Part shown: piece by piece, positions 3,001 through 20,354 of the stretch
Numbering within the stretch: position 1 is the first letter of the stretch
Layout of the letters: each line of letters opens with the position of its first letter
Assembly: GCA_048939765.1 (NCBI GenBank)
Contig: JBHLPF010000038.1
Coordinates: 1 to 29,372, forward strand
Length of the DNA stretch: 29,372 nt
Origin: Promethearchaeota archaeon
GTDB lineage: Archaea; Asgardarchaeota; Thorarchaeia; Thorarchaeales; Thorarchaeaceae
Reading direction: 5' to 3'
Notes under the pieces: model-generated
Told to the model about the DNA's origin: nothing
Seen by the model: only the letters and a program-made list of their open reading frames with translations
The model's database searches: none
Position numbers and translations under genes: made by a program

Positions 3001-6000
3001 TCAGTATCAGAAACTGATGGGACATTTACTTTCGAGTTCAATACATCACAGTATGGAGCCCTTGGAATGAGAGCTTTGCTATTGGATGTGACTTGGGCTG
3101 GTTCTCCGTTCTATTTGAATAGAACCGGTATCATAGTATACATCACTGTTGTTGAACGACAGACATTTCTTGAGTATCTAGCGCCTGCACCAACTCAATA
3201 TAATGACAATGTTCAGTTCGATGTCACATGGACTGACATTACAGGCGGTGCCTCGGATGGCATTACTGGAGCGACGCTTACTCTGTATCAGGATGCGACT
3301 CCAATCAATCCAATTTATTACAGCTGGTTAGATATTGGCGGGGGTGTCTATTCTGTTGACCTAAGTGCCTCCTATAATCCTCCAGGTCAATACAATCTAA
3401 GCGTAGAGATGTCAATAGGACTATTCTACATTTCCGACTCAACTGTCGAACGTCGATTTACAATACGGGAACGCATCACCCTACTCTCTGCGGAACCTGT
3501 CAGAGATGTACCCTATAGCTCAGATGTTGAAATCATCCTATATTACCAGGACCTGTTTACAACCAGCTCAATACCCAATGTTACCGAGGCTGTCACCTTT
3601 GAGATCCTTAATCCTGGTGTTTGGAATTTCGTGATTAGCTACAACTTCGTAAACCAATACTATGAACTAAGTGTCACTACGTCCGACCATCCTGAGCTGC
3701 TCATTGGAGTGACATATACATTCAATCTTACAATGACCTACGACTCCATCGCACCGTATTATGCCAGTGATGGACTTTTCGTAGACTATGAGATACGCGT
3801 AAGGGACTCCGCCATTGAGCTAGATACAGCCCCAACATCCACTGCATATAGTAATGACGCAAGCTTTGCAATCTACTATGAGGACGCAGATGCATCAAGT
3901 GGAATTGCAGGTGCAGACATATCGGTATTTCTCAATGGTACTCAGCTAATTGAGAATACTGACTATACAATGAGTGAGGGGTCTGCAGGACTCTATCTAT
4001 TCGATGTGGATACAGGCGCATTGGTAGGGCTTGGCATTAATACTCTGGTAGTCTATGCGAATTGGCCGGGGACTCCCTACCATGAAAATCTGACAATTAG
4101 CGTTGGGATAGTTGTACGTGAGCGATCCACAATAATAGAATTCACGCAACCACCAGCTAGAACCGAATACCTTGATGATGTGTCCTTCAAATTTGTCTAC
4201 AATGACCTCGATACAGGTGCTACTGGTGGTACTCCTGTTCTTGGTCTCACAAAGACCGAAGTTAGACTTTACTATAAGAATGGCACAGAGATTCCCTCGG
4301 CCTATTTCGCTTTAGCTCCTGACGGAGATTCGTATGAGGTAGTGGTTAACTCGGCTGTTCTTAGTCCAATGCTTGATAGCGACTATTCTCTGAGAGTAGA
4401 TGTTGATTGGAACATCGGGACTGCACCATACTATGAGGATGATTCCACAATTATCCGCGTTGTCATAATCGGACGCACTATGTTTGTTGATCCTACCACC
4501 ATCGATACAACTCCGAGAACAGGTCCTAGTGGGACGGAGAACATGACTGTATTCTTTACAGTTTCCGATGCCGGTAATGGCAATCCCATTTCAGGAGCGA
4601 TTATCGTCTTCACCTGTGTGGAACAGCCAATCTTCAACTATGTTCTCCTTAGGGGTACGGGGCCTCAAGCAGGAGAGTATACTATTGAAGTTGACACTGC
4701 AAGTCTGACAACAGTCTTTGGTGAAGGGGCATATCATTTCCAACTGAGAGTCCAATGGAATCCATTAATAGCGCCATACTTTAGCAATCGGTCTGCAATT
4801 ACATTGACCGGGATTGTCGACCTAGTGTTAACCACTCTCCAAGCGGGAGCTCCGACACCTGCAGCTCCATACTTTGGCGAGAACGTATCACTAGATGTGA
4901 CATTCAACGATTTGGACCATGATGTAGGGGTCAATGGCGCAGCTATTCAGGTTGTGTATGAATCAGGCATTCCGGCTGTCGTTCAAAGTCTTGATGTTGT
5001 TGCAACGGGCTCTCCAGGAGAATATAGAATAACCTTCAATACAGGAAATGTCCCCACTGCTGGCTCCTATGTCCTTAGAATCACAGCATCCAAGACAGGA
5101 TATACATCTCAAATAGCTAGACCTACTATAACAGTACAAGTGATACCTACGTCGATATATCTGCCTCAGAGTTCATATCAGGTAGATTGGAAAGACACGG
5201 TTAGAGTCTTTGTCAATTTCACCGATGATTTCAATCATCTTCCCATTACTGGTGCAACTGTGACATGGAGCTATGCAAATGTTACAGATCAGCCTTTCAC
5301 AGACATGCTAACAGGGATATACTATGCCGATATTGTTGCAGACATGGACAATGTTGGTAATTGGGCCCTGACGATTATAGCCACAAGAGCTGCGTATCAG
5401 ATTGCTACTGCAAACATAATTCTTGTTGTCTTGCGTCTACCGAGTGAGCTGCAGATTAGAGAACCAGTTGAGGCTATTCTGGATGTACCTCGCGGCGATC
5501 CGGTGAATGTCACCGTCTTTTTGCATGATGTGAATAATCTTGCCCCAATAGCAAAAGAGGAGGTCTCCAGGGTTTACATCATATTCCAAGGTGTTGAATA
5601 TGACATGTTCGAACATGTCAACGGCTCTGCAGGCTACTACCAAGGATCCATTCCAGGACCAACAACTGGGGCACTCATTCCTCGAGGCTATGATGTTCGA
5701 ATAACGGCCGAATTCGTCAATTACGAGGTTGCGGTCAGTCAATTTGGTATTGTCATTCGACAGACAACAACTGAGATTCGCATCTGGGATGCTGAACATT
5801 CTGTATTCACCAACGAAACAATCGTGATTAATGCTGTGTACCTTGAAGTAGTGAACTTTACACTGCAGATTATCGCTCCCTCGTACACCAATGCTACGTT
5901 CACATATGAAATAAACAGTTCATTGGTTAACTGGTTTGAATCTAGATGGTTAGTCGACTACGACTTCATCAATAAGGGCAATGGCATCTATGAATTGATG

Positions 6001-7977
6001 TTCAACACATCTGAAGCATCTTATGGGACATGGGGCTTAACATTCACTTCAGTTCCCGATGACGTGTTCTTTGCAGAAGATGCTCTGCTTGTCACACTGG
6101 TGATTCAGAAAATCCCAACGGAAGTAATCACTCCCATTGTGGAGAATCTGGTTTGGGGCTGGAAAGGAAACTTGAGTTTCTACTATAACGATACACATTA
6201 CAACCGAGGAATAGCTGGCGCTGATGTAGAATACTCCTATTTTGATTTGCAGGATCTTTTGGCCTATGACATGCTGAATGGATACTATCTCATCTATATC
6301 GATACTACAATCCTATTCCCAAGTGCTACGGTTAAGTATCCGATTCTCGTAACTTTCTCGAATGAGGAGGGTGATTACGAGAGTCGAACAGCTGGAGTGC
6401 AAATTACCGTTCTGGAGGTGCCCACAGAGATACTATTGAACACCACAGGAGCTTTGGGCGGATTCACGCAGCTAGATGGAGAGATTAAAGTCTTCGAATA
6501 TGATGTTGCTTTTGGCGGAACAATTGATTTTGAGTTTCTATACAATGACACAGATAATTCTGAAGGGTATGTTGGAGGAATATCAGGCTCAGTAACAAAT
6601 AGCACAACTCTTTATCACACCATCAACATGAACAGTGATTCCCCGCTATTGGCAGAGATTGGCGGCGGTATGTATAGATTCCAATTTAGCACCATGAATA
6701 GTCGCCTGTTTGATAAAATAGGCGGGACTCCTGGAGCTAGTCCGGGCATTCCCTATATATTTGAAGTGACACTGTGGCTCGCGAATCGGTCTGCTCGAAC
6801 GGTTAGAATCTTAATCACGATCATCGAAGTCCCAACAGAGATTTCCATTGTTGATTTTCAACTAGAAACCCTGTATGGAGTAGAGGGCTATTTGGTCCTC
6901 CGCTATTGGGATACATGGAATGATATGCCGATTTCTGGAGGTGATATTATCGCTTTTTGCAGCGACAACAGAATAACGATTACTGGGAATACATCAGAAT
7001 CCACCCCGGGTCTCTATCGCATTAAATTCGTCGCTGCAGCAGGCCTGCTGGATATAATTCTTCAGCCCTTCACTGCAACGATTAGTTTCGATATTTCCAA
7101 AGAAAACTATGCCGCTCTAGATGAATCTGCACTATCTGATACTCTTACTGTTAGCGTATCCCTGACTCCGACTCAAGCTCTCGTGGGAAGATATCTTCCA
7201 ATTCTTGCTCCTATCAGCTTCGTCATTATGTTGCTACTAGGAGCATATGTAAGAGTCTGGAGTGTGCCTAAGCGCATCCGCCAAATAAATGGCCAGATCA
7301 AGGCCCTCCGCAAAGGCAAGATACCAAAACCAATTGACGGAGTGTTGTCGAGGCAAGAGCTAGTTGCCGACCTCTTCAATGATACCTACATCGAGCTGAA
7401 ATTGAAAAGAACTCCTTCACAAATGCCTGAGGAATCTATAGATATTGCCGTGCCTGAGATGGGCGAGCTGCTCATCCAGCTGGCAATACTTACCAACCTC
7501 AGTGCTGACGAACTGGAGGAGTTCCAGGCCGACATCTCTAAGATGCGACTCAGTGAGCAGGCCGCTTTTGTCAGAGAAGTCATCATGCAAGAGGCAGTTC
7601 GTACTGCTCGAAGAGATGGCAAAACGCCCGAAGAGGTAATTGAAGAGGTACGACTCGACGCACTTCGCAGGGTTAGCGGGGAAGAAGGTCTCATTGAAGC
7701 TGGCGCAATAGTCAGGGAGAAAGAAGAGGAGGCGGTGCGAATAGTGGCTGAGGAGGAGCCGGAGAAGGAATTCAAGCCCGAGATTGCTCCACCAGAAGAA
7801 GAGGCGGTGGAGCCGGGCGAGAAACTCAGTCAATATGAGCTAGAGGAACTCCGAAAGGAGCTGGAATCCCGGGGTGTGCCTCCACATGAGATTGATACCA
7901 TCATGGAGCAAGCACGAGTCCTTCCGCGCGAACTAGTCGAGGAGCTAGTGAAGAGCCTAGGAGACAGGAAGAGGTAG
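1..7977 (+). CDS. Giant single-pass cell-surface glycoprotein, 5'-truncated by the window edge (about 22 Ig-like repeats, TM helix, conserved cytoplasmic tail)
   Basis: Frame 1 is open from base 1 (VDYSVGIYEREFIVKHD). This aligns to an internal segment of the next gene (VDHRVGEYQREFIVRHG), so the GTG at 40 is not the real start. The protein has ~100-aa beta-rich repeats (Y/F-x-D...GI/PIxGA...GxYxI...GxY), many NxS/T sequons, a TM segment at about 7183-7254 followed by basic residues, and an acidic helical tail. Confidence 0.9.
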   Translation, partial: VDYSVGIYEREFIVKHDTSLTLQEPSDAVGDRLTVTTAGEWIYVEYELTDGITAAGVPDAAVTLNWTVSGAPTQITLDDFGTGTYGKMLNTDNLGIAKQWLVTLQSTHQFYNDATEYFKIDLYHQTNLDYGDVTTTPADDDFTATLTFRDTYDGSPIEGAEIVVDGGPVGMTYNDLGQGKYSVSIPTGALSLGQHWYIFNATLSGSYLEMASVNITFTLRQHFTSVNLQGNLVSPYGFNTQFSVILLDLDTGGTVPLSAVSQFSFDPASYGVQTRPGTSYSITLTTDTWGVATESVTLTITMADTKYATPQAYSFDITIRSRYTSVSVSGSIVQPYGNTTPLSVNLWDHDAGEVVPIGAVSSLVFTWSGGNHPFNNPSSYSLNLDDTSTWDVGVTTVTLIVTITGDEYSDPSNFVFDITIRSMRTVLYHDPSDLVFGDGADFWIDLRVNVSEAGASFGQPITGLTQGEFSLSGNPFPFTIDTTDNLIGRYRLTISWANLGPGDYTITVIVTPSDVSHAVAQVIIHFSYRFVQTSLTSPTHPQVTTPFGTDVQLTLNYTDIESGTGIAGATITNTSINIYGLVDQGTGIYTLWLDVTGLAEGTHAFSLGAVKNGYEGRSLSFTVRIRIAYTYAIPSIGALDIPIGNSPVFYVDYWDIDHDVPVDNSSAPYTRVLSTWHNFTVIYIPAQQRYQITFMTSDSDSLQSNTVYSFNFSRESNYQFGIFNITVSIRTHNTDFRLVSAIEPTSNVGTIEISVYYGDLDNTFGVDSVNVAFSVENASGPVISSSVSSGGGFYIIQVAADQFGLGVQTFTVYADWMGPFAKYQNKNFVTTASIVGLESAYTLLEASAPTPYLEIMSYKFFYSELSGIGIDNLTGNVFVYVSFQGESVDLGQVNIFDYSLTQPGNYSIQFNTSIFDRTGIINMNVFVNWSKGVAPFYQNRTDIITLRILPRDTLVSVVPPSPTSYLEMASFSFTYEDIAGETSSLIYDSPSLAISSNVTFSVSETDGTFTFEFNTSQYGALGMRALLLDVTWAGSPFYLNRTGIIVYITVVERQTFLEYLAPAPTQYNDNVQFDVTWTDITGGASDGITGATLTLYQDATPINPIYYSWLDIGGGVYSVDLSASYNPPGQYNLSVEMSIGLFYISDSTVERRFTIRERITLLSAEPVRDVPYSSDVEIILYYQDLFTTSSIPNVTEAVTFEILNPGVWNFVISYNFVNQYYELSVTTSDHPELLIGVTYTFNLTMTYDSIAPYYASDGLFVDYEIRVRDSAIELDTAPTSTAYSNDASFAIYYEDADASSGIAGADISVFLNGTQLIENTDYTMSEGSAGLYLFDVDTGALVGLGINTLVVYANWPGTPYHENLTISVGIVVRERSTIIEFTQPPARTEYLDDVSFKFVYNDLDTGATGGTPVLGLTKTEVRLYYKNGTEIPSAYFALAPDGDSYEVVVNSAVLSPMLDSDYSLRVDVDWNIGTAPYYEDDSTIIRVVIIGRTMFVDPTTIDTTPRTGPSGTENMTVFFTVSDAGNGNPISGAIIVFTCVEQPIFNYVLLRGTGPQAGEYTIEVDTASLTTVFGEGAYHFQLRVQWNPLIAPYFSNRSAITLTGIVDLVLTTLQAGAPTPAAPYFGENVSLDVTFNDLDHDVGVNGAAIQVVYESGIPAVVQSLDVVATGSPGEYRITFNTGNVPTAGSYVLRITASKTGYTSQIARPTITVQVIPTSIYLPQSSYQVDWKDTVRVFVNFTDDFNHLPITGATVTWSYANVTDQPFTDMLTGIYYADIVADMDNVGNWALTIIATRAAYQIATANIILVVLRLPSELQIREPVEAILDVPRGDPVNVTVFLHDVNNLAPIAKEEVSRVYIIFQGVEYDMFEHVNGSAGYYQGSIPGPTTGALIPRGYDVRITAEFVNYEVAVSQFGIVIRQTTTEIRIWDAEHSVFTNETIVINAVYLEVVNFTLQIIAPSYTNATFTYEINSSLVNWFESRWLVDYDFINKGNGIYELMFNTSEASYGTWGLTFTSVPDDVFFAEDALLVTLVIQKIPTEVITPIVENLVWGWKGNLSFYYNDTHYNRGIAGADVEYSYFDLQDLLAYDMLNGYYLIYIDTTILFPSATVKYPILVTFSNEEGDYESRTAGVQITVLEVPTEILLNTTGALGGFTQLDGEIKVFEYDVAFGGTIDFEFLYNDTDNSEGYVGGISGSVTNSTTLYHTINMNSDSPLLAEIGGGMYRFQFSTMNSRLFDKIGGTPGASPGIPYIFEVTLWLANRSARTVRILITIIEVPTEISIVDFQLETLYGVEGYLVLRYWDTWNDMPISGGDIIAFCSDNRITITGNTSESTPGLYRIKFVAAAGLLDIILQPFTATISFDISKENYAALDESALSDTLTVSVSLTPTQALVGRYLPILAPISFVIMLLLGAYVRVWSVPKRIRQINGQIKALRKGKIPKPIDGVLSRQELVADLFNDTYIELKLKRTPSQMPEESIDIAVPEMGELLIQLAILTNLSADELEEFQADISKMRLSEQAAFVREVIMQEAVRTARRDGKTPEEVIEEVRLDALRRVSGEEGLIEAGAIVREKEEEAVRIVAEEEPEKEFKPEIAPPEEEAVEPGEKLSQYELEELRKELESRGVPPHEIDTIMEQARVLPRELVEELVKSLGDRKR

Positions 7978-8012
7978 TTTACACTCTCCCTCTTCCATTC
8001 TTCTCTCCTTTC
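7978..8012 (+). terminator. Pyrimidine-rich tract after the giant gene 1 stop; possible archaeal terminator
   Basis: TTTACACTCTCCCTCTTCCATTCTTCTCTCCTTT lies immediately after the TAG. Confidence 0.4.
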
Positions 8013-8169
8013 GAAAAAAAGACGGCTTTGACTACACATTGCTGTGAATCGACACACCATTTGTTATTATACATGTCTTGTCAGGCAGTACGCGCCACGC
8101 GCTATTCTCTGGGAAGCAAACTGGAAACTGAGAGCTCTGCAGGGAATGGACTCACTGAGGTTGTCCGCT

Positions 8170-11100
8170 ATGAGAAAAAGTGCAATCATTGGCCTATCAC
8201 TGGTTATCTTGTTCTTCCTGCCATCTACCGTATCGATGGATGGTTCATCTATGCCCGCAGCGGTGATACCAGCTCCCTTTGACAATCAAGGATTAGTGGC
8301 TGACAGCCCAGTATCGTATGCAGGAAAAGGCGGAGCTCTGGATGTAGCTCTTCAAGGTTCATTCACCGTAAATGCCTCCACCTGGAATGCCGCGGGACAG
8401 ACATATGCTGCAGACTATACTCTTGGCACATCATTCTCAGTTCAGAATGCAAGTACGGTGAGTTGGACTGCCTACGTTTCAGTTTCCCCGCCTGCAGAGG
8501 TTGAGGACGTCAGCTTTGCAGTGGACTATCCTCGATTAGAATGGATTCCCATTTCGGTGACAGACCCACTAGGAGTGGTCAAGACATATCCGACGGATTG
8601 GACCTATTCTCTGGGAGTTCTGAGCGTCGCTTCAACAGCTGTCACTACGTACGGACTATGGAAGATTGAGTTTCTGGGCGGCAATCATCTCTATGACATT
8701 CAGTTTGATCTTGGAGGCGGCTCGTATGCGAATACGGCTACCTATGATGTCGGTGAAGACTTGGAGATTCAAGGTAGCAGCTCCTTCATTAACGGAGCTA
8801 CGGCCCAGCTAGTCCTGACTGACCCCACGGGAGCAGTCTGGCACACTACGACAAATACAACCTCGGGATCTAGCAGCCATGAGATACCCTCATTCCAATA
8901 TAAGAAAGACATCACAATCAATCAAGCTGCTATAGGTACAGATCTGAATTTCTTCCCAGTAATGGTTAGTCTAATTGACACTGGACTTCATGATCATGCT
9001 CAGTCAAGCGGCAACGATATCGTGTTTGTTCAGAACGGAATGGTTCTCGACCACGAGGTAGAGATTTACAATCCTACTTATTCTGGAACAGAGGCGCAAC
9101 TTGTGGCATGGGTCAAGGCGAATGTTTCAGGAACCGTTGATACCGTGATTTCAATGTACTATGGCAATCCCATCGTTGGTCCTCAAGAGAATCCCTCTGG
9201 GGTGTGGACCTCGAGCTACTCTGCAGTCTATCACCTTGGTGAGAGTGCCGCTGATGAAGCGACAAGCGCAGTGCACTATGACTCAACCAGCAACTCATAT
9301 TATGGCAATCAGAATGGAAATGCAGATGCCACCGGTTTGGTCGGATCAGGACAGGACTTTGACGGGACCGATGACAAGGTAGTAGTGGATTCTTCCCGAG
9401 GCTTTGATCCTACTGGTGACTTGACTATATCCGGTTGGTTCAAGCTCGATAGTCCTTTCACTTCTAGCTCTGGAACATCACAGGTGCTCATGGCCAAGTA
9501 CTTGACAGGCGATGATGATATGCACATTGTGCTCGCGGGCACCGATTATGGTAATGCAATGACAAAAGGGTCAATTGTATTCAAGATGGAGAACAATGCT
9601 GCACAGAAATACAAGTGCACACAGCAAATCACCTGGAGCACTAGCAGTTGGTTCTACTTTGCTGCAACAATGGACGCAAGTACGCCAAACAACAATCAGA
9701 TCTACATCAATGGACAGCTCGACACTAACGCGACAAACGTGATTGGAGGCGCATCTTACGGTAATCTGACCTTCCCGGCAGACTGGGAAATTGGTGGTGG
9801 ATTCACTGATAGCCAGCTCCCTGGAGGACAGGGATTCTTTGATGGCAGGATGGACGAAGTCCGTGTGTCAAATACGCTACGTTCTGGAGCATGGCTATTG
9901 GCTGAATACTACAACCTAGCGTTGCCAGGATCGTTCTATTCCGTAGGATCTGAATCCGAGCGTTCACTCGCAGCTCCGAAGTTTACAAAGGCGATCGATT
10001 CAACAGCCGTGGCTGGCCTATGGACAGCCAGCCTCCATTACAACGACAGCGGTGCCTCCGTAGACCACAGAGTAGGAGAATACCAGAGAGAGTTCATAGT
10101 CCGACATGGCTCAACTCTCACAATTGGCTCGCCTTCTGGTATAGCCACAAGGGTGGTCGGTGATCTCCTATACATAGTTGCGAATCTGACCGATGATATC
10201 ACATCTGGTTTTGTCAGTGGTGCTACCGTGACTGCAAACTGGACCGACACTGGAACGTCAACAATGGTGACGTTCGAAGACTATGGGGATGGCAGGTATG
10301 GCAAGGTTCTCAATACTTCGGATCTCGAAGGCAACATACGCTGGCACATCAACATTCAATCTTCACATCCCTTCTATAACGATGCTTCAACTTCCTTCAA
10401 CCTTGACCTCTCTCATGATACATCTCTAACGTATGACTCACTCACCACAACACCGGTTGGATGGCGCCTCGAAGTGAGTCTGCTATTTGAGGACACGTTT
10501 GATGGGTCACCAATTACTGGAGCTATAATCAAGTTTTCAAATGGTACACCAGTTGATAATGTTGTAGCGGAAGGAGGTGGACGCTACAATCTCTCCTTGT
10601 CCTCAGTTGGACTTGGCAAAGGAGATCACAAATATTCGTTCATTGCTGAACCACCAAGCTCCTACCTTGTGGATGGTACTGTTGATGTGACCTTCACAAT
10701 TCGAGCACACCATACGGCTGTTTCTGTGTCGGGGGATTTAATCGTGCCAATTGGAGAAGATACTCCTCTGACAATACAATTGGTAGATTTGGACAACCAG
10801 ACTGTGGTCCCGATTGGTAGTGTTTCAGCCTTCACATTCACACCCTCAAGCCACGGTGCGCAAAGCGATAGCTCCCCCGCAGATTATCTTTTCAACCTTG
10901 TGACAAATACATGGTCCATAACTCCTTCAGAATCCGTGACACTATCAGTTACACTATCGGATTCGAATTATATGGCTCCGGATTCCCACGTATTCAGCGT
11001 AGAGATTCGTTCACACTACACCTCAGTCAGTGTGTCTGGAGTTCTTCACAAACCATTGGGCAACACTACTCCCTTGACTGTGATTCTGACTGATTTGGAC

Positions 11101-14100
11101 ACTGGCAACCAGATTGCCATTGGCAATGTTGGCACCTTCACATTCACTTCAAGTTATGCACCTCAGGTTTGGAATTCGCCCTCATCCTATGGCATTACGT
11201 TGGATACAAGCAGCTGGGCAGTTGGTAGCAATACGGTCACGCTAACTGTAGCCATGTCAAGCTCAGAATATTCCGCGCCTGCTTCGTGCGATTTTGATAT
11301 AGTGATAACGAGCCTCACCATCTACATGTATCATGAACCGAGTACTCTGAGGTTTTCAACTGGCCAGGACTTCCTCGTGACATTGAGAGTCGATGTCAGT
11401 GAACCAGGACCAAGCTATGGAAGTCCAGTGCAAGGTCTAATTGAAGGCGAGTTCTCAGTACCAGGATATACTATCACTATTGACACAACCGACCAAGCGC
11501 TTGGAAAATACAATCTCACAATCTCTGCCGCGAGTTTCAGCGACGGCTATCATACAATTACGGTCTATCTTGATCCATCCAGTACCAATTATGCCAGCAC
11601 GACTCTTGTGATCACATTTAGATATGAGCCAGGTCTGGCAGCATTGTCATCACCAAGCTATCCTCAAGTCACAACGCCCTTTGGAACCGATGTTCAGATT
11701 TCACTCACCTATGAAGATGCTGACAGTGGTACACCTATCACAGGAGCCACAATTGGTGGTGATATTCCGACGTATGGTCAAGCTTATGCTGCTGGTGCAT
11801 ACACAATTTGGATTGATGTTGCAGGATATGCTCAGGGGTCTCATCAGTTCACACTGTGGGCTGATGAAGCGAATTACCAGAATAAGACCCTCACCTTCAC
11901 ATTGGTCATTCGAAACGCCTTCACCTATGCATTGCCAAGTGTGGGTGCCCTTGATATCCCATTGGGAAATGATCCAGTCTTTACGGTGGACTATCACGAC
12001 ATCGATAATGACGTTCCAGTATCAAACGGAACTGGTGAGGTCACGGTTGTTTCCAGTTGGGGCAACTTCAATGTTGTTTACTTGTCTGGACCTGGATTAT
12101 ATGAAATCACATTCAACACTGTAGACACAGACACGCTGGTCCAGAATCAAATTTCCACCTTCACCTTCTCAAGGCCAAACTATCAGGATGGAGTCTTTTC
12201 AATCTCAGTGACCATTCGTCCCCATAACACTGACTTTCGGCTCGTCAGTGCAGTTGCACCTACTACTTTCAATGGAATCATCAACATTTCATTGTACTAT
12301 GGTGACATCGATAATGCTGCTGGTATTGAACCACTTGGGAGTCTTACAATCACAGTTGTGAATGAATCGGGCTCTGTTGGATTTAATCCCATAGATGACA
12401 GTGGCGGGTACTACACTGTTCAAATTGCAGCAAACCAATTCGGGCAAGGACTCCATACCTTTAACATAACCTTCGGTTGGTCTGGCCCAATTCAGAAGTA
12501 TCAGACAAAGTGGCTTGAAGTCACTGCAAATGTAGTTGGCGAAGACTCCCGTCTTACCCTTATGGTCGCCTCAGAGCCAACTGCCTATCTCGGTGTGATG
12601 AGCTACATCTTCTTCTACAGCGACCAAGGAAACATCGGTATCACGAATGACACCTTCAATGTCCATATCTCAGTGTCATTCCAGGGAATTTCAGTAGACC
12701 TGGGGCAAGTCAATATTCAAGAGATAGGCAGCGGCAACTATTCGATTGACTTCAATACCACCATCTTCTCTGCAACCGGTCTCTATTACATGAATGTATA
12801 CATCAACTGGACTGAGGGTGTTGCTCCATTCTATACCAACCGCTTTGATGTGATTTCTGTACGTGTGCTGCCGCGTGACACGCTGGTGTCAGTTACGCCT
12901 CCATCACCAACATACTATGGCGAAATCGCCTGGTTCGTTTTCACTTTTGATGATGTGACTGGAGAAAGCAACGTGCCCATTGTGGATGACCCCTCATTAG
13001 ACATAACGCTAAGCCTCCCAGGCTACAGCGTCAACTACTTGTCAGGAACGCAAGAATTCAATGTGACCTTTGATACAAGTCTGCTTGGAGCTCCTCTGGG
13101 ATCAAGATCCTTCACACTAGATGTCACTTGGGCTGGCGCGCCATTCTACACAAATCGTACAGGTCATGCAATCTCAATTGTTCTTTTGGCACGCCTGACG
13201 GTTCTAGATTTCCAGGCTCCAGCTCCAACGCCATACCAAGACAATGTCACTTTCACTGTGACTTGGACAGATGTAACGAGTGTTGCATCAGGCATCTCTG
13301 TTGACACTTTCGTGCTATATGACGATGCAACTCCAATTCCGTATCCCGCATTCTATTCGTGGACTTCACTAGGAAATGGTCAGTACGAAATCACAATGAA
13401 TTCAACCTACTATAGTGCTCCCGGATTCTACAATCTGGTTGTTGAACTAACTTCAGCAGACTTCTTCATCCTAGATGCGAGTGCATCTCGGGTGTTCAAT
13501 GTGAGGCAAAGAGTGACACTTCTATCTGCAGAACCCACTGACAGGCTGCCCTACAACTCTACTCTGCAATTTGTCCTAAACTATCAAGACTTGCTGACCC
13601 TAGGAGTCATCGGTAATGCCTCTGACCTTGTAACCTTCGAGATCCTAAATTCATCGACGTGGTTCCACTCGATATCTTGGAATGCTATCCTTAAGCAATA
13701 TGACTTCACTGTGGAAACTTATAATCACCCCACTCTAGCCACTGATACTCCATACGCATTGGAAGTTAAAATGACCTATGCGAATGTAGCTCCATTCTAT
13801 GGTGCCGATACCACATACATCCAGTTTGAGTTGAGATCCAGATCCTCAAAGCTTGTGCTTCAAGACACCCCTGATTCGACCCCATATCTGGACTATGCAA
13901 ACTTCACCGTGTTCTACAGAGACCTTGATGCTGCAGGATCAGTTGGTATCATTGCTGATAGCATTGAGGTGTACAAAGGCGCGACTCCACTAACCCAAGG
14001 CACACACTATTTGGTGTCAAATCTCAGTGGCGGTATCTACTTGATATCGGTAAACACGACCGCTCTAGATGGTCTAGGCACGACGGTGCTAACTGTCTTT

Positions 14101-17100
14101 GCCAATTGGAATCCTTCGAACAGACCGTATCATGACGATGCTGATGTCATCGTATCGATAGTAACAACCGAACGAGACGCCAACGTGCAGATTCTGGTTC
14201 CTCCGTCACAGACCCAATATTGGGACAATGTCACGTTGACCTTTGCATACTATGACCTTGGAAGAGGTGTAGAGATCACCAGCATAACAGCCTCAGACAT
14301 TGAAGTCTGGGCGGATGGTGCGCTTCTAGCTCCAGGAGACTTCATTCTGACCTCTATCGGGCCCAATTTTCAGCTGGAAGTCAACTCTTCTGTCTTGAGT
14401 CCGACTTTGGTTAGCGGCTACAATCTAACAATCTTCGTTGACTGGAATGATCTTGTTGCACCATACTACCTCGATGATTCAACACTGGTTAGAGTCACCC
14501 TTGTAGGAAGGAAGATGACATTTTCAGCTGACCCCATCAGCGATGCTGACCTCGGAGAGCTCCTGAGCATAACCTTCCGTCTTCAGGATCTGGATCAGGG
14601 ATGGCTAGTGGCAGGTGCTATAATCTCCTTTGATGGCCAGACTGTTTCTCTGACGCAAGGTGTGAATTACTGGGTTACTGATGTAGGCGGAGTATATACT
14701 ATCGACGTCGATACCCTCGCATTGGGCAGTCCCGGTCCTTACAAATTTGATTTGGATATCGCATGGAATCCTGGCACAGTCCCATTCTATACTAACCTGG
14801 CGACGATAGAGCTAACGGGAATCGTTAGAGAGATAGATACCGAACTGACATTGATTGATCCTGCTAGTGGGATTGTTGAAGTCTTTTGGCAAGATGCGGC
14901 GTATGTCGATGTTTCCTTTGATGACTTGTATAATCTAGTTGTTATATCCGGAGCAACAGTGAGGTATGATTCAGACATTGCGAATGGTTTCTTTGATGAA
15001 TCCATCGCCACTCCTGGGACCTACAATGCTTTTATCTCTACAGAGAATGCCACTTCCCCTGGAACTCTGGTTGTGACCATAACTGCGAGCCTAGCCAATT
15101 ATGAAACCGCAATAGCATATGTCACCCTTCTCATAAAGGCGCTGCCGTCAGAGATGATTCCAATTTCCCCTGTCTCTGGGCAGGATTTCATGAGCAGAGG
15201 GAGCGCCATAGAAATAACCATCTATCTGCGAGATGACTACATTACACTCGCACCTATACTAGACTCCAAAGTGCTATCAGTTCTGGCGAATTTTGAAGGA
15301 GTTGACTATCCACTGGTCTACAACGGCACAGTAGGATACTACGAGCTTCTCATACCTGCAGATGGCCCAACCATTCTTGACATTGGGACTTATAATGTCC
15401 GGGTCACAGCGATTTTCAACTTCTATGACCCTGCAACATTCTTGTTCAGAGTCACCCTGACTCAGTCAGCCACCGAGCTTAGGTTTACAGGAACTACAGC
15501 AGAGGATATGTCACGTGTCTATACTGAGAGCGTCAATTTCTCAGTCATGTTGGTACTACCTGACTTTGGTGACATGTTGTTCTACAATTCAACCGTTACT
15601 TGGTATATCGTCGGTACGAGTCTGACCGGCACCTTGGCAAATCCACGAACCGGCTATTTCTCAACTGTTGTTGATACCATAACTATTGGATATGGCATTT
15701 GGCCAATAACCATTAGAGCAAGAACTTGGGACAATGCATCCGAATTTGCTGATACATCCATTCAGCTCACACTAACAATTACGAGGATTCCGACTACTGT
15801 TATCCGTCCTGGAAATATCGATGTCTACTGGGGATGGAATGGGAACATCGAGTTCATCTACTCCGCGGGCTCATTCGGTAATGTAACAGGTGCCAACGCT
15901 CCGTTCAATTGGGATGTGGTTAGTGGGAATGCAACTGAAGGGCCAAATGGTCGATATTTCGTATTCGTTAACACTTCACTGGTTGCTCCAGGCTTCTATA
16001 CCCTAAGCCTCACACTCAGCAAGGAGAACTACCAAGAGGGTCCAGCGTCAATATTGATTCGAGTGCTGGAAGTACCCACATCCATCTTCGTGGATTCGGT
16101 TGTCTATACTCCAGCATATGGAGGAACATTGCCCTCAATGACAGACCTTCAGATCCCCCTTGGCGAGTCAATGGTCATCGATTTATGGTATAACGATACT
16201 GACGCTTCTGAAGGATATATTGGAGGTCTATCTGGAGCGTTTGCTACAGGCAACAGCTTCCTTAGAGGGCCCACAATAGACACGCCTTTGAGTGTTTCAT
16301 TAGTTGACGTGGGACATGGTCTATATCGGCTTACATTCGACACAACCAATCCAGCTATTGCAGCCATAGTCACAGACGAGCCTTACAGATTCTATATTGA
16401 AATGGACCTGGAGAATCGCCGAATTGCTGATATACTGATCCGAATCGTAGTCATCGATATTCCAACCGACATCGTTATTCTGACAGAACTACCTGATTCA
16501 TTGGTTAATGGTGACTCATTTACATTTGATGTGTTTCTCAATGATACATGGCACAATCTGGGCCTTTCTGGTCAAACCGCCACATTCTCAAACAGTGAAA
16601 GATTGCAGGGAGTAGTAGACTGGGCTTGGGAGGAAGTAGGTAACGGATATTATCGCATCATCATGAGTACTGGTGGATTACTAAACTCGGGCTCTGGCTT
16701 TGCTACAATCTCTGTCGAAATCCCTGGCTATGCATCCATGACATTTGAAACACACCTTGAGGTTGTACCCAATCAAACTGATGAGGTCCTTCAAACGGCG
16801 TTGGTCTATGGGCTGCCAATCAGCCTATTAGTAGTTATTCTCCTAGGCGCCTACATCAGGGTCTGGAGCGTGCCCAAGAGGATTAGGCAAATCAACAAGC
16901 AGATCAAGGCAATAAGCAAAGGCAAGATTCCTGCTCCATTATCGGACGTGAGGAGTCGTACGGAGATACTTGCTGCCCTCTTCAATGACACCTATAGCCA
17001 GATGAAGTTGACTCGAGTCGCCGCTCAGATGCCAGAGGAGTCTGTATCCATCGAGATCCCAGAGATGGGTGACCTTCTCATCCAACTAGCTATTCTGACG

Positions 17101-17568
17101 AATCTTGATGCTGATGAGCTTGACGAGTTCAAGACTGACATTGCAAAGATGAAAATCAGTGAGCAAGCCGCATTTGTGCGAGAGGTCATTGAGCAAGAGG
17201 CAGTTAGAGCAGCCCGACGTGAAGGAAAGACAGTTGAGGAAATCCTTGAGGGAGTTGCTGCTCAGGCTGCTCGCCAACTTGAAGGAGTCGAGGAAGAAAT
17301 TCCTGCACCGCAGATCTTGGCTGTAGAGCCAGAAATGGCTGAAGAGGTGGAAGCGCCTATCGTCGGTGAGCCAGAGGAAGTAGAAGAAGTGACTGAAGTC
17401 ACAATGGAAGACCGGCTCAGCACATTTGAGATCGAGGACATCAAGATGGAGCTCGTCCGTCGCGGAGTTCCTGCGCATGAAATCGATACAATCATTGAGC
17501 AGGTCAAGGATCTGCCACGAGAATTGGTGGACGAGCTGATTGAGAGCGTAGATCGAAACGACAAGTAG
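8170..17568 (+). CDS. Giant single-pass cell-surface glycoprotein/adhesin-like protein: signal peptide, DUF2341 + LamG/ConA-like domain, about 21 Ig-like repeats, TM helix, conserved cytoplasmic tail
   Basis: The ATG at 8170 gives a typical signal peptide (MRKSAIIGLSLVILFFLPSTVS); ATG 8146 is an alternative. A DUF2341-like segment (FQYKKDITI...FPVMVSL...GNDIVF...LDHEVE...AWVK...ISMYYGN) is followed by a LamG-like segment (DFDGTDD...LTISGWFK...IYING...FFDGRMDEVRVS). TM at about 16798-16857. Collinear paralogue of gene 1. Confidence 0.9.
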   Translation: MRKSAIIGLSLVILFFLPSTVSMDGSSMPAAVIPAPFDNQGLVADSPVSYAGKGGALDVALQGSFTVNASTWNAAGQTYAADYTLGTSFSVQNASTVSWTAYVSVSPPAEVEDVSFAVDYPRLEWIPISVTDPLGVVKTYPTDWTYSLGVLSVASTAVTTYGLWKIEFLGGNHLYDIQFDLGGGSYANTATYDVGEDLEIQGSSSFINGATAQLVLTDPTGAVWHTTTNTTSGSSSHEIPSFQYKKDITINQAAIGTDLNFFPVMVSLIDTGLHDHAQSSGNDIVFVQNGMVLDHEVEIYNPTYSGTEAQLVAWVKANVSGTVDTVISMYYGNPIVGPQENPSGVWTSSYSAVYHLGESAADEATSAVHYDSTSNSYYGNQNGNADATGLVGSGQDFDGTDDKVVVDSSRGFDPTGDLTISGWFKLDSPFTSSSGTSQVLMAKYLTGDDDMHIVLAGTDYGNAMTKGSIVFKMENNAAQKYKCTQQITWSTSSWFYFAATMDASTPNNNQIYINGQLDTNATNVIGGASYGNLTFPADWEIGGGFTDSQLPGGQGFFDGRMDEVRVSNTLRSGAWLLAEYYNLALPGSFYSVGSESERSLAAPKFTKAIDSTAVAGLWTASLHYNDSGASVDHRVGEYQREFIVRHGSTLTIGSPSGIATRVVGDLLYIVANLTDDITSGFVSGATVTANWTDTGTSTMVTFEDYGDGRYGKVLNTSDLEGNIRWHINIQSSHPFYNDASTSFNLDLSHDTSLTYDSLTTTPVGWRLEVSLLFEDTFDGSPITGAIIKFSNGTPVDNVVAEGGGRYNLSLSSVGLGKGDHKYSFIAEPPSSYLVDGTVDVTFTIRAHHTAVSVSGDLIVPIGEDTPLTIQLVDLDNQTVVPIGSVSAFTFTPSSHGAQSDSSPADYLFNLVTNTWSITPSESVTLSVTLSDSNYMAPDSHVFSVEIRSHYTSVSVSGVLHKPLGNTTPLTVILTDLDTGNQIAIGNVGTFTFTSSYAPQVWNSPSSYGITLDTSSWAVGSNTVTLTVAMSSSEYSAPASCDFDIVITSLTIYMYHEPSTLRFSTGQDFLVTLRVDVSEPGPSYGSPVQGLIEGEFSVPGYTITIDTTDQALGKYNLTISAASFSDGYHTITVYLDPSSTNYASTTLVITFRYEPGLAALSSPSYPQVTTPFGTDVQISLTYEDADSGTPITGATIGGDIPTYGQAYAAGAYTIWIDVAGYAQGSHQFTLWADEANYQNKTLTFTLVIRNAFTYALPSVGALDIPLGNDPVFTVDYHDIDNDVPVSNGTGEVTVVSSWGNFNVVYLSGPGLYEITFNTVDTDTLVQNQISTFTFSRPNYQDGVFSISVTIRPHNTDFRLVSAVAPTTFNGIINISLYYGDIDNAAGIEPLGSLTITVVNESGSVGFNPIDDSGGYYTVQIAANQFGQGLHTFNITFGWSGPIQKYQTKWLEVTANVVGEDSRLTLMVASEPTAYLGVMSYIFFYSDQGNIGITNDTFNVHISVSFQGISVDLGQVNIQEIGSGNYSIDFNTTIFSATGLYYMNVYINWTEGVAPFYTNRFDVISVRVLPRDTLVSVTPPSPTYYGEIAWFVFTFDDVTGESNVPIVDDPSLDITLSLPGYSVNYLSGTQEFNVTFDTSLLGAPLGSRSFTLDVTWAGAPFYTNRTGHAISIVLLARLTVLDFQAPAPTPYQDNVTFTVTWTDVTSVASGISVDTFVLYDDATPIPYPAFYSWTSLGNGQYEITMNSTYYSAPGFYNLVVELTSADFFILDASASRVFNVRQRVTLLSAEPTDRLPYNSTLQFVLNYQDLLTLGVIGNASDLVTFEILNSSTWFHSISWNAILKQYDFTVETYNHPTLATDTPYALEVKMTYANVAPFYGADTTYIQFELRSRSSKLVLQDTPDSTPYLDYANFTVFYRDLDAAGSVGIIADSIEVYKGATPLTQGTHYLVSNLSGGIYLISVNTTALDGLGTTVLTVFANWNPSNRPYHDDADVIVSIVTTERDANVQILVPPSQTQYWDNVTLTFAYYDLGRGVEITSITASDIEVWADGALLAPGDFILTSIGPNFQLEVNSSVLSPTLVSGYNLTIFVDWNDLVAPYYLDDSTLVRVTLVGRKMTFSADPISDADLGELLSITFRLQDLDQGWLVAGAIISFDGQTVSLTQGVNYWVTDVGGVYTIDVDTLALGSPGPYKFDLDIAWNPGTVPFYTNLATIELTGIVREIDTELTLIDPASGIVEVFWQDAAYVDVSFDDLYNLVVISGATVRYDSDIANGFFDESIATPGTYNAFISTENATSPGTLVVTITASLANYETAIAYVTLLIKALPSEMIPISPVSGQDFMSRGSAIEITIYLRDDYITLAPILDSKVLSVLANFEGVDYPLVYNGTVGYYELLIPADGPTILDIGTYNVRVTAIFNFYDPATFLFRVTLTQSATELRFTGTTAEDMSRVYTESVNFSVMLVLPDFGDMLFYNSTVTWYIVGTSLTGTLANPRTGYFSTVVDTITIGYGIWPITIRARTWDNASEFADTSIQLTLTITRIPTTVIRPGNIDVYWGWNGNIEFIYSAGSFGNVTGANAPFNWDVVSGNATEGPNGRYFVFVNTSLVAPGFYTLSLTLSKENYQEGPASILIRVLEVPTSIFVDSVVYTPAYGGTLPSMTDLQIPLGESMVIDLWYNDTDASEGYIGGLSGAFATGNSFLRGPTIDTPLSVSLVDVGHGLYRLTFDTTNPAIAAIVTDEPYRFYIEMDLENRRIADILIRIVVIDIPTDIVILTELPDSLVNGDSFTFDVFLNDTWHNLGLSGQTATFSNSERLQGVVDWAWEEVGNGYYRIIMSTGGLLNSGSGFATISVEIPGYASMTFETHLEVVPNQTDEVLQTALVYGLPISLLVVILLGAYIRVWSVPKRIRQINKQIKAISKGKIPAPLSDVRSRTEILAALFNDTYSQMKLTRVAAQMPEESVSIEIPEMGDLLIQLAILTNLDADELDEFKTDIAKMKISEQAAFVREVIEQEAVRAARREGKTVEEILEGVAAQAARQLEGVEEEIPAPQILAVEPEMAEEVEAPIVGEPEEVEEVTEVTMEDRLSTFEIEDIKMELVRRGVPAHEIDTIIEQVKDLPRELVDELIESVDRNDK

Positions 17569-17572
17569 ACTG

Positions 17573-18349
17573 TCAATTCCCTTTCCCCTTTTCCTCTGTG
17601 TTGAGGAAGTGGGAGAGTGGAAGCGTGGTGCCTGATGCGACCGGCTTTGTTCTAGAGGCTCGTCTGACTGGATACTGCGGGTGCTTCGATAGGGTATATT
17701 TGATATACATCTTGGACTCCTCCACATGTACATGCACTTGTGCGCAGCTGGCCAACGCTTTGCCTCCTGCAGGAGTCCTACCGCTTCTCGGTGCTGATGG
17801 TGCTGAGATTATTGTGGCTATTCCTCTCTGGAGGGTGAATGTCATCAGCTTGGTCGCCATGTGTGTGATCTGCTGGAGTCCCTCTCCGGTCAGGCCCTCT
17901 GAGATATACAGATCAGGAAGTCCAGTCACGATGAGAAGCCGTGCACGAACTCTGTCGAAGAATGACTCAAGCTGGTTCATCACAAGGTCATATGTCTGTG
18001 ATGCATTGAACGCTCGAGAGATATAGATCCTGTCCATTGCGTCCTCCGGCTCGAGTCCGAGTTCGAATGCGTGGTCACGGATTCTCTCAATCTTGATCAT
18101 ATTGGCACTATCGATGATTATCGTTGGACTGTCTGCTCCACCTTTGTGACTAGGAAGTTGAGCCTGAACTGCAAAACGGAGAAGGTCGTCATGAAGGCTA
18201 CGTGTACCGTAGAAGAGGTGTGTGAGCCCCATCTCAATACCGCCCCCGAGTAATCTATCGATTGAAACGTAGCCACTACTCATTCGGCGTCTCTCTACCA
18301 TGTCCGCGGTGAAAAATCCTGTTCTTGTCTTTGATTCCGCGCCCTTCAT
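17573..18349 (-). CDS. RadA/Rad51-family paralogue with a degenerate ATPase site and no N-terminal HhH domain
   Basis: RadA hallmarks: SGYVSIDRLLGGGIEMG, AQLPSHKGG, IYISRAFN, PAGGKALA. The Walker A position reads YGTRSLHD and Walker B reads LLIVTG. The ATG at 18349 (GAGG upstream) is preferred over the TTG at 18391. Confidence 0.85.
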   Translation of the reverse strand: MKGAESKTRTGFFTADMVERRRMSSGYVSIDRLLGGGIEMGLTHLFYGTRSLHDDLLRFAVQAQLPSHKGGADSPTIIIDSANMIKIERIRDHAFELGLEPEDAMDRIYISRAFNASQTYDLVMNQLESFFDRVRARLLIVTGLPDLYISEGLTGEGLQQITHMATKLMTFTLQRGIATIISAPSAPRSGRTPAGGKALASCAQVHVHVEESKMYIKYTLSKHPQYPVRRASRTKPVASGTTLPLSHFLNTEEKGKGN

Positions 18350-18464
18350 CTCACACTCGTCCTCCGTTCCAGCGTTTTTATCCACCCCCAAAAACTACGA
18401 GTGCAGTTGCCACTCAGTTTAAATGTCGTACCCCCATAAGTATGCCCTCAAGCCGGGAGGAATC

Positions 18465-18668
18465 ATGGACAAAACGCAGAAAATCAGAGTATGCCCTCGT
18501 TGCGGAAATCCCCAGATACGAGAGGCGAAGACCTCTGTAAGTGGATGGCTGGTTCCAAAGACCTACTACTGCTCAAATGAGGATTGCGGCTATTCCGGTT
18601 CTGTTTTTGTTGAAATCGAGGCGGATGAAGCCGATAAGTTCAGACGTGCAATCAATGGCGAGAAGTGA
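18465..18668 (+). CDS. Small Zn-ribbon protein (CPRC...CSNEDC), 67 aa
   Basis: The ATG at 18465 is preceded by SD-like GGGAGG, and the protein has two Cys pairs. Confidence 0.8.
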   Translation: MDKTQKIRVCPRCGNPQIREAKTSVSGWLVPKTYYCSNEDCGYSGSVFVEIEADEADKFRRAINGEK

Positions 18669-18738
18669 GAATGTAGCTATCTGAACGAAGCAATAGACTC
18701 AAAAGAGGGCAAGGAGCATCCTGCAGCGGTGACTACTA

Positions 18739-19164
18739 TTGGTTACATACGAAGGTTTTGAGTGGCCTGACGATCTGTTCTACACAGAAGACCAGATTTG
18801 GTTGAAAAAGGAGGGCGGAAATGTCCGCCTTGGATTCACCACTTTCGGCATGGACCTGGCTGGGAAGATTAAATTCGTACGCCTACGACCTGCTGGCAAA
18901 GACATCAAGGCTGGCCGCAGCATTGGCACTCTCGAGTCAGGGAAATGGACCGGGCCTGTCAAGTCCCCAGTGAGTGGGACCATTGCAGAGGTAAATGATG
19001 CTCTGAAAGACAATCCGGGCCTGCTCAACGACGACCCATACGGCGCAGGTTGGGTGGCTGTGGTTGAGCCAGCAGACCTCGATGGTGAGATTGGCACTCT
19101 TCAGGGAGGAGCCGGTCTTGAGGAATGGGTTAAGAAAGACTATGCCGAGAAGAAGGCTCAATAG
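18739..19164 (+). CDS. gcvH: Glycine cleavage H-protein family lipoyl carrier
   Basis: PDDLFYTEDQIW, lipoyl-Lys motif LESGKWTGPVKSPVSGTIAEVN, LLNDDPYGAGW; TTG start with a GGTGA SD. Confidence 0.9.
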   Translation: MVTYEGFEWPDDLFYTEDQIWLKKEGGNVRLGFTTFGMDLAGKIKFVRLRPAGKDIKAGRSIGTLESGKWTGPVKSPVSGTIAEVNDALKDNPGLLNDDPYGAGWVAVVEPADLDGEIGTLQGGAGLEEWVKKDYAEKKAQ

Positions 19165-19208
19165 ATACAAAGAAACTGTGGTGCCGGACTCCCCGGCCCA
19201 CAATCACT

Positions 19209-20354
19209 TCATTTTCTCCTAGCTAACTCTCGACGCAGGCTCAGTGAGGCGTCATAGAGTATCTCTGGTGGTGCAATTAGATAAAGGAGATTTCTTGAGT
19301 AGCCCGACTCAAAGACTATGCTTTGAAATATCAGTGTCTGAAGACTCTTCTCGATGTCCTCTGGAACGAACCTCACTCCCAGTTCTTCGCATTTGATCAA
19401 TACAAGTTCGTTGAGGGTCTGTCTGTCAATGTAGGTCTCAGTCTTGTATGTCATCAGATGTTGGGAAAGACTCTCTAAAACTAGAAGCGTCATGAAATCA
19501 TTCATGCTGATAGCATCGATAGTGTCCATGTAGTCCAAGTCCTGTGCTGCAGTGGTGATGTTTGAGGTAGCTGCCCGAACAGCATCTGATGTTATCTCCT
19601 GACCGCTCGATGCCATAGGCCAGAGCGCTTTGAGGGCTTCAACTGAAGTCCTTGGCTTACCAGCGTCGAACTCAATGACGCAGTCAGTGATGTATCTCAC
19701 AACCTCTTCGGTGAGGCCAAGTGGAAATGTGTCCTCAACTCTTTGTCTAACAATCTCATAGAGCTGTGACTGAGTGTAGGTGTCAAGAGGAACCTCAAAG
19801 TCATATGCGACCTTTGTCGCTGGACCCTTTGTGAGCAGTCGGTAGTCGTGACTGTTCAGAACCCCTATTGTGCTGGCTCTGATCTCCTTTGACAGATGCG
19901 CGAGCTTCGAATACACCTCCTCATTTGTTTCATCGATTCCATCAATGACGAAGACGGTCTTTTTTGTCGCAGAAGCTGCCATTCTCTTGAACTGCATCCA
20001 AAGCACGTCAAGGTCGAACGCCACTGTGATGGGTGAATTGGTTTCCCGGTGTATCTTGTCGTTTAGCTCAGCAACAATCTCTAGGGGGTCCTTCCGGCGC
20101 GCATCAACATAGACAGTGTATGCGTCAAACTGTTGTGGCGTGAGTTTCGTCAGGAAGTACCGGCTGAAAACAGTCATGCCGACGCCTGTTATTCCATGGA
20201 CAAGGCAATTGACACCATAGTCCTCTTCATAGCTGTCGCGGTATATCCCCTCAATCGCGTCAAGTTCTCTGTCTCGATGAAGGAGTCTCTCCGGGACATG
20301 GTAAGGATCAAACAAGCCCTTCGGGCTTCGATTCTGACGGACCATTCCTATCAT
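19209..20354 (-). CDS. Cdc6/Orc1-family AAA+ protein with degenerate Walker motifs
   Basis: N-terminal LFDPYHVPERLLHRDRELDAI, then YTQSQLYEIVRQRVE and a C-terminal wH-like CEELGV segment. Walker A reads GITGVGMT and Walker B reads VFVIDGID. Confidence 0.85.
   Translation of the reverse strand: MIGMVRQNRSPKGLFDPYHVPERLLHRDRELDAIEGIYRDSYEEDYGVNCLVHGITGVGMTVFSRYFLTKLTPQQFDAYTVYVDARRKDPLEIVAELNDKIHRETNSPITVAFDLDVLWMQFKRMAASATKKTVFVIDGIDETNEEVYSKLAHLSKEIRASTIGVLNSHDYRLLTKGPATKVAYDFEVPLDTYTQSQLYEIVRQRVEDTFPLGLTEEVVRYITDCVIEFDAGKPRTSVEALKALWPMASSGQEITSDAVRAATSNITTAAQDLDYMDTIDAISMNDFMTLLVLESLSQHLMTYKTETYIDRQTLNELVLIKCEELGVRFVPEDIEKSLQTLIFQSIVFESGYSRNLLYLIAPPEILYDASLSLRRELARRK

Follow-up and report, generated by a model that had tools for sequence, protein, structure and literature searches.

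A gene on the reverse strand of a 29,372-nucleotide stretch of DNA from a Promethearchaeota archaeon of the class Thorarchaeia (GenBank assembly GCA_048939765.1, contig JBHLPF010000038.1, positions 1 to 29,372; the whole stretch is called the window below) very probably encodes the Thorarchaeial iRadA, an ATPase-dead, core-only accessory subunit of the PolB2 translesion complex, which consists of the error-prone DNA polymerase PolB2, a trimer of PPB2 and iRadA itself (Table 1). An iRadA was defined in 2014 as an inactivated RadA that is encoded in the PolB2 operon together with arCOG07300/PPB2 (Makarova, Krupovic & Koonin; PMC4104785), and the PolB2 mutasome was structurally modelled in 2025 (Timinskas, Timinskas & Venclovas; PMC11791011). 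Bona fide iRadAs belong to arCOG04294, arCOG08101 and arCOG07763. We assign the window gene to this family because its product falls in one clade with operon-encoded proteins that are equally devoid of the Walker motifs, and because its own genome, in which it is the sole iRadA, also encodes PPB2 and PolB2 as a pair. It is an unlinked member of a known family, unusual mainly in lying far from the genes of its presumed partners and in having kept the donor peptide by which RadA protomers contact each other.

The RadA/Rad51 fold of the protein is secure. The Pfam Rad51 domain (PF08423) covers residues 23-178 and scores 58.8 bits, its cut-off being 22; the NCBIfam RadA models give 61-63 bits against cut-offs of 259-361, and the Rad51 and Dmc1 models likewise reach about 60 bits, which is far short of their equivalog cut-offs. 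A family profile run against PDB sequences recovers the Rad51/RadA of P. furiosus (1pzn) at E=3e-26, with F12 of our protein placed opposite chain residue F97, while XRCC3 (E=1e-5) and RAD51C (E=7e-4) match weakly. The single-chain AlphaFold2 model is confident (pLDDT 79, pTM 0.77), and its top Foldseek matches are RAD51/RadA cores, including human RAD51 at a TM-score of about 0.77. Besides furnishing these best matches in sequence and structure, archaeal RadA and eukaryotic Rad51-Dmc1 share with the protein a homologous position of the FxxA oligomerization peptide and the GGGxE, VQLP..GG and RAFN signatures. Unlike them, it does not possess the features of a full recombinase, namely intact Walker A and B motifs, an N-terminal helix-hairpin-helix (HhH) domain and complete L1 and L2 loops; it has also lost the catalytic glutamate, and it bears a C-terminal extension with a KHP motif and a motif resembling the PCNA-interacting peptide (PIP) box.

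An earlier note on this DNA, made from the letters alone, had recognized a pseudo-RadA with all three ATPase motifs replaced, no HhH domain and a GFFTA peptide at the RadA/Rad51 position. These observations hold. In an alignment with the RadA of the same genome GSFRSGKT stands against G-T---RSLHD, with three residues deleted, VDTE against IDSA and LLVVDS against LLIVTG; neither the Pfam scan (which looked for HHH_5/HhH) nor the AlphaFold2 model has an HhH domain; and the pairing of F12 with F97 of 1pzn fixes the place of the peptide. The same alignment shows a shortening of both DNA-binding loop regions, L1 and L2, relative to the RadA of this genome, and a position of iRadA inside a DNA-bound filament is therefore unlikely. 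Translation starts at the ATG at 18349 and not at the TTG at 18391, as the orthologues share the same first methionine.

With every catalytic motif gone, one could suspect that the gene is a RadA pseudogene in decay, or that its open reading frame (ORF) arose by chance, but this we regard as extremely improbable. The gene is present in 85 of the 87 genomes of the class Thorarchaeia, spread over all 17 genera, and more than 200 homologues of about 255 amino acids (aa), nearly all from Thorarchaeota metagenome-assembled genomes (MAGs) and mostly annotated as hypothetical, can be collected; the frame is intact in about 200 of them. Not one of 119 full-length homologues has GxxxxGK[ST], whereas F.TAD is found in 117 (the two others look like truncated gene calls) and PLSx[FY] stands near the C-terminus of all. 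Among 20 orthologues with 57-90% identity the residues G11, F12, T14, A15 and D16 are invariant, as are D80-S81-A82-N83, G143, K222-H223-P224, L245-S246 and F248, so that new invariant motifs (IIDSAN, KHP and PLSxF) accompany the confidently predicted fold. The ratio of non-synonymous to synonymous substitutions (dN/dS) against the closest orthologue is 0.065 at a dS of 0.56; this value comes from the closest pair, the remaining pairs being saturated at synonymous sites while their amino-acid identity stays at 51-68%. The gene is conserved under strong purifying selection and is not decaying. The earlier idea of a non-catalytic RadA derivative under selection is in this way borne out, and the two sequence findings that could have overturned it, intact Walker motifs in orthologues or a variable FxxA peptide, were both absent.

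The family context comes from relatives in other Asgard lineages. A profile search of 1.84 billion representative sequences returned 17 clusters below 1e-30, followed by a halo of relatives of about 250 aa, all without Walker A; those bearing names come from Thorarchaeota, Ranarchaeia, Helarchaeota, Loki/Promethearchaeota and Bathyarchaeota. In 18 of 20 loci outside Thorarchaeia (families f13, f21, f9 and f30) the genes follow the order iRadA-PPB2-PolB2, adjacent or 1-4 kb apart, which is the operon type "1a (iRadA-PPB2-PolB2)" of PMC11791011, and the PPB2 proteins of these operons have about 90 aa with an N-terminal MGRT. At one of the two other loci PPB2 adjoins the iRadA relative at the end of a contig, and at the second, the sole locus of the 20 with neither partner (L073), PPB2 and PolB2 lie on another contig. 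The more divergent relatives of families f22 and f32 (132-136 bits) occur in the same gene order, bringing the total to 20 of 22 loci. With a profile of the wide family, A3, the ORF that immediately precedes PPB2-PolB2 is recovered in f13, f21, f9, f30, f22 and f32. Lokiarchaeota and Heimdallarchaeota operons are contained in the data set of PMC11791011, and the part of its supplementary data that was searched yielded no Thorarchaeota entry.

A quick maximum-likelihood search with 81 sequences, in which branch support was computed by the Shimodaira-Hasegawa-like approximate likelihood ratio test (SH-aLRT), placed every Walker-less protein, be it of Thorarchaeia (both locus types, A and B, distinguished below), operon-encoded or other, together, a branch supported at 98% separating all of these from the RadAs with Walker A, the RadA of this genome, RadA2, the RadB-like gene and a second degenerate paralogue. 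Within the Walker-less side the Thorarchaeial iRadAs form a clade with 99% support. This split also bears on the proposal that the protein is a RadB- or aRadC-type paralogue of RadA that merely lost its P-loop. Its core-only architecture, RadB-like length and missing HhH domain would fit such an origin, but the NCBIfam RadB models score it at 27-29 bits against cut-offs of 172-278 (TIGR02237 at 29.1 against 172.4), below the scores of the RadA models; the genome has a separate RadB-like gene with an intact GEAASGKT; and RadB proteins are not linked to PPB2-PolB2. We therefore consider a RadB or aRadC identity very improbable, in agreement with the distinction from RadB drawn in the earlier note.

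The RadA family has five genes in this genome. One of them, a 241-aa paralogue on contig C1 (L005, 1447-2172, reverse strand), has HGPERSPLT at the Walker A position and a retained Walker B (IVLDS); its NCBIfam matches incline to RadB (49.5 bits), in the tree it sits on a long branch with RadB, and its stop end overlaps the start of a gene for an XPG/FEN1-like nuclease (Pfam XPG_I, 65.8 bits). That this paralogue might be the real partner of PolB2 was considered and rejected, since against operon-encoded iRadAs it reaches just 18-25 bits and its place in the tree is with RadB and RadA. Another, also on C1 (L002, 1360-2427, reverse strand), is a second full-length RadA with HhH domain and an intact GPARGGKT, in which GFKSG replaces GFxTA and a C-terminal extension carries ILDYFEK, resembling the PIP-like tails of iRadAs; it probably belongs to the second Asgard RadA clade of PMC12722695.

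The genome of the window itself encodes both partners, which form a pair on a different contig (Table 1). The PPB2 begins with MGRTARTFR, and the PolB2 has HGIVDSVWL, in which IVD takes the place of DxD, a hallmark of PolB2; the segment that precedes SR[DNT][GK] is conserved between the PolB2s of Thorarchaeia and those of the operon type, as would be compatible with a docking of PolB2 on iRadA. The window gene is the only gene of iRadA type (A3 type) in the assembly: none occurs near PPB2-PolB2 within the 7 kb upstream and 2.5 kb downstream that contig C49 allows, and conversely no PolB2 or PPB2 was found among the scanned ORFs of the window. In a tally of 268 Asgard genomes that are at least 85% complete, the iRadA-bearing families f1, f9, f13, f21, f24, f28, f30 and f31 all have PolB2, and iRadA is found in none of the 14 families without PolB2; the tally used a threshold of E<=1e-42, so that the lack of iRadA it records in f12, f14, f22 and f32 is an effect of the threshold and not an absence. 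The protein agrees with the iRadA of known PolB2 mutasomes in its RadA/Rad51 core without N-terminal domain, its lost ATPase residues, a possible clamp-binding motif at the C-terminus, an orc1/cdc6 gene nearby, same-clade homologues in the iRadA-PPB2-PolB2 order, and a genome with an MGRT-type PPB2 and an IVD-type PolB2. It departs from them in being unlinked from PPB2-PolB2 in all Thorarchaeia examined (adjacency is typical of the family and led to its discovery, but membership by homology does not require it), in its invariant, canonical GFxTAD, in its zinc-ribbon neighbour, and in the non-canonical PIP-like TLPLSxFL.

Several observations weigh against the assignment to the PolB2 complex. 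None of 20 Thorarchaeial loci has PPB2 or PolB2 within 9 kb of iRadA, and where both occur on a shared contig (G010, G003, G053 and G026) the distance between them is 0.2-1.2 Mb. PolB2 without a detected iRadA is seen in three Thorarchaeia genomes (88-99% complete), and iRadA without a detected PolB2 in two. Within Thorarchaeia we infer the partnership from orthology and co-occurrence only, and membership in the iRadA family was judged by comparison with operon-encoded relatives of Asgard lineages rather than with crenarchaeal or euryarchaeal iRadAs. The C-terminal TLPLSHFL fits the pattern xxxLxxFL of a PIP box, with L245, S246 and F248 invariant, but lacks the canonical glutamine. Finally, an upstream octamer that marks PPB2-PolB2 is missing from iRadA, which argues against simple co-regulation.

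Of 19 Thorarchaeia genomes, 18 have this octamer, A[CG]TTTC[AG]G, at 121-160 nt upstream of PPB2 and invariably on the coding strand, when about one occurrence is expected by shuffling; the copy of this genome lies at about position 7076 of L058 (contig C49), 155 nt upstream of PPB2, and the further loci scanned were L105-L126. Upstream of iRadA it is found in just one of 21 regions, and not between 18350 and 18464. It matches the core AGTTTCRG of a 20-bp consensus in damage-induced promoters of S. islandicus, where the hexamer ANTTTC is bound by Orc1-2 and Orc1-2 controls the induction of dpo2, the gene for PolB2 (PMC6061795). The pattern suggests that a conserved damage-inducible promoter drives PPB2-PolB2 and not iRadA. 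A promoter element common to the two, sought as a test of co-regulation, was not found. A conserved G-rich and T/A-rich element, GGGGGTGGATAAAAA, lies about 26-40 nt upstream of the iRadA ATG (approximately 18375-18389) and recurs in most orthologous loci of Thorarchaeia; it is predicted to be a part of the promoter. Since the element resembling a damage-response site is confined to PPB2-PolB2, expression of iRadA probably does not follow that of the polymerase.

The second peculiarity of the Thorarchaeial protein is its N-terminal peptide. Residues 1-12, which include the beginning of the FxxA peptide, have a pLDDT below 50 in the AlphaFold2 model, and the tail is probably flexible. GFxTAD is invariant in Thorarchaeia; SFISAD is found in the operon-encoded iRadA of f22 and F[ND]SG at the equivalent place in the large family f9, while nothing recognizable stands at this position in the iRadAs of f13 and f21. 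As peptides of this type occur in the operon-encoded proteins of f22 and f9, they are an old feature of Asgard iRadAs and did not arise through the move out of the operon. In the main text of PMC11791011 the term "FxxA" does not occur, and no such peptide of iRadA is mentioned. The obvious candidates for its partner are RadA and a second iRadA molecule.

The peptide lends itself to another explanation, in which the protein regulates recombination independently of PolB2 and acts on RadA filaments by its FxxA peptide, capping, nucleating or poisoning them in the manner of Rad51 paralogues, BRC repeats or Shu. Separation from the PolB2 operon would then reflect a new or an additional job, and such a role would be compatible with membership in the PolB2 complex. 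It could draw on the invariance of GFxTAD in a flexible tail, the unlinked position across the whole class, the upstream element that differs from that of PPB2-PolB2, and the second, type B copy, which several Thorarchaeia genomes have in yet another context. The occurrence of SFISAD and F[ND]SG in operon-encoded iRadAs, however, shows that the peptide is not tied to separation; clade membership and co-occurrence favour PolB2; and the short L1 and L2 loops make a place on DNA within the filament unlikely. We hold this explanation to be quite unlikely. The earlier note had preferred just such a role, that of a cap, mediator or inhibitor comparable to Rad51 paralogues and Shu proteins; as the leading interpretation this gives way to iRadA, to which genomic context and tree point, the matches to XRCC3 and RAD51C being weak, and it may survive as a secondary possibility resting on the FxxA peptide.

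Returning to the PolB2 complex, the published models suggest how it might work. In these models the polymerase contacts the RecA-fold subunit by an oligomerization-like motif, a loop of PolB2 docking into iRadA as the oligomerization motif does (PMC11791011). In that work the PolB2-RadA control reached 0.28, a poor score. Transferred to Thorarchaeia, the PolB2 loop would occupy the pocket of iRadA that in RadA takes up the FxxA peptide from the adjacent protomer; the PPB2 trimer would insert its MGRT arm between PolB2 and iRadA; and the TLPLSHFL tail would bind PCNA and tether the polymerase to the clamp for lesion bypass. To this we would add that the GFxTAD peptide of iRadA may be free to dock on another protein of the RadA fold, either RadA or a second iRadA, and that iRadA may be made independently of PPB2-PolB2. 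Clamp-binding (PCNA-binding) motifs have been reported in many iRadAs (PMC11791011), and the C-terminus of iRadA homologues from other Asgard lineages reads TLDYWF or TLDAYF. The PolB2 of this genome has no PIP-like C-terminal tail of the iRadA kind. In the Lokiarchaeia-like family f9 the PolB2s (L063-L079) end in Q[KR][DNT]L[SLTV][CSN][FY][ILTAV], a canonical PIP box, and the iRadAs likewise end in TLD[YC]WF, so that both subunits seemingly carry clamp motifs, a situation described as rare (PMC11791011).

It is conceivable that Asgard iRadA is a three-way adaptor, with its pocket engaged by PolB2, its C-terminal tail by PCNA and its FxxA peptide by a free pocket at the end of a RadA filament or on a second iRadA. 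This is a tentative proposal, and on present evidence we would rate it as rather doubtful. If true, the translesion polymerase would be recruited or licensed at recombination intermediates, comparable to the activation of Pol V by the tip of a RecA filament, and the Thorarchaeial iRadA could be a constitutive binder of RadA filament ends that awaits damage-induced PolB2.

Among known systems outside archaea, bacterial ImuA (in ImuA-ImuB-DnaE2) and RecA in the Pol V mutasome (UmuD'2C-RecA) offer a functional analogy, as both pair an error-prone polymerase with a RecA-fold protein whose part in the complex is structural or non-catalytic. In sequence no relationship to them is detectable (no ImuA model is among the NCBIfam matches at E<=0.1), the lineage is that of RadA and not RecA, and the polymerase is of family B instead of C or Y. 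The resemblance to ImuA mentioned in the earlier note is nonetheless the idea in it that comes closest to the evidence, a dead RecA within a mutasome, if in a functional sense only. The Rad51 paralogues (RAD51C, XRCC3, Rad55-57) and Shu have in common with iRadA the Rad51 fold, an accessory role and, in some cases, degenerate ATPase sites, and judging from structure titles the paralogue complexes cap RAD51 filaments; iRadA is far more distant from them in sequence, nothing indicates a role in RadA loading, and its genomic partner is a polymerase.

The surroundings of the gene are themselves conserved. Some Thorarchaeia genomes have a second iRadA copy, of type B, in a different context; the present one has type A only. 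A block of iRadA, a zinc-ribbon gene, the gene for the H protein of the glycine cleavage system (GcvH) and an Orc1/Cdc6-like gene, the first and last on one strand and the other two on the opposite one, is present in 13 of 17 type A loci of Thorarchaeia, the copy of the window extending over 17573-20354.

Table 1. Coordinates of iRadA, its motifs, its neighbours and the genes of its putative partners (positions in the window unless a locus and contig are named)
Feature	Position	Strand	Description
iRadA gene	17573..18349	-	258-aa RadA/Rad51-core protein, catalytically inactive; stop codon 17573-17575
TLPLSHFL	17603..17626	-	PIP-box-like, putative PCNA-binding motif at the C-terminus, followed by an acidic/basic tail
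LLIVTG	17921..17938	-	residues 138-143; replaces Walker B hhhhD (Asp to Thr)
IDSA	18104..18115	-	residues 79-82; replaces RadA (V/I)DTE, catalytic Glu lost
YGTRSLHD	18188..18211	-	residues 47-54; degenerate Walker A position without GK[ST]
GFFTAD	18302..18319	-	FxxA-type RadA/Rad51 oligomerization (donor) peptide; GFFTA is residues 11-15, 18305-18319
Intergenic region iRadA/zinc ribbon	18350..18464		divergent, 115 bp
Zinc-ribbon protein gene	18465..18668	+	about 68 aa, CxxC...CxxC (CPRCG...C..CGY); divergent from iRadA
GcvH gene	18739..19164	+	glycine-cleavage H protein, in the conserved block
Orc1/Cdc6 paralogue gene	19209..20354	-	divergent; TIGR02928 73.8 bits against a cut-off of 181
PPB2 gene	L058 7231-7491, contig C49		86 aa; part of the pair 7231-9785
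PolB2 gene	L058 7488-9785, contig C49		765 aa

The zinc-ribbon gene, whose start is probably the ATG at 18465, preceded by GGAGG, stands beside iRadA in 16 of the 17 type A loci examined and was not found beside iRadA in other Asgard lineages; Pfam gives weak hints only (Ogr_Delta, Lar). The GcvH gene is probably a bystander. In the Orc1/Cdc6 paralogue the Walker A lysine is replaced (GITGVGMT), GVG[M/R/S]T being found in 16 of 16 Thorarchaeia orthologues, and the Walker B motif DNIDE is kept; the paralogue may be a regulator of the Orc1-2 type rather than an initiator. The earlier note was silent on this neighbour, as on the PIP-like motif. Genes for orc1/cdc6 are enriched around PolB2/iRadA operons (PMC11791011, PMC4104785), and their position beside iRadA is the commonest arrangement among haloarchaeal PolB2 operons (PMC11791011). 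Because of this frequent adjacency in haloarchaea, the block of Thorarchaeia appears to be what is left of an ancestral gene neighbourhood after PPB2-PolB2 moved away. On the other side of iRadA, positions 1-17568 of the forward strand are filled by two giant tandem ORFs (>2658 aa and 3174 aa) that are repetitive and extracellular-looking, with a C-terminal transmembrane helix and a charged tail, and that end 4 bp from the convergent stop codon of iRadA.

These results give a probable function to a protein that most Thorarchaeota MAGs list as "hypothetical" or as a "RecA/RadA recombinase", and whose unlinked gene would escape surveys of PolB2 operons that rely on gene neighbourhoods. The trio of PolB2, PPB2 and iRadA genes is carried by Thorarchaeia as well as by Lokiarchaeia-like and Heimdall-like Asgard lineages, and studies of the evolution of Asgard RadA and Rad51 should count such sequences as iRadA and not as recombinase paralogues. 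If the donor peptide of iRadA binds RadA, the nearest prokaryotic relatives of eukaryotes would have a link between translesion synthesis and recombination filaments.

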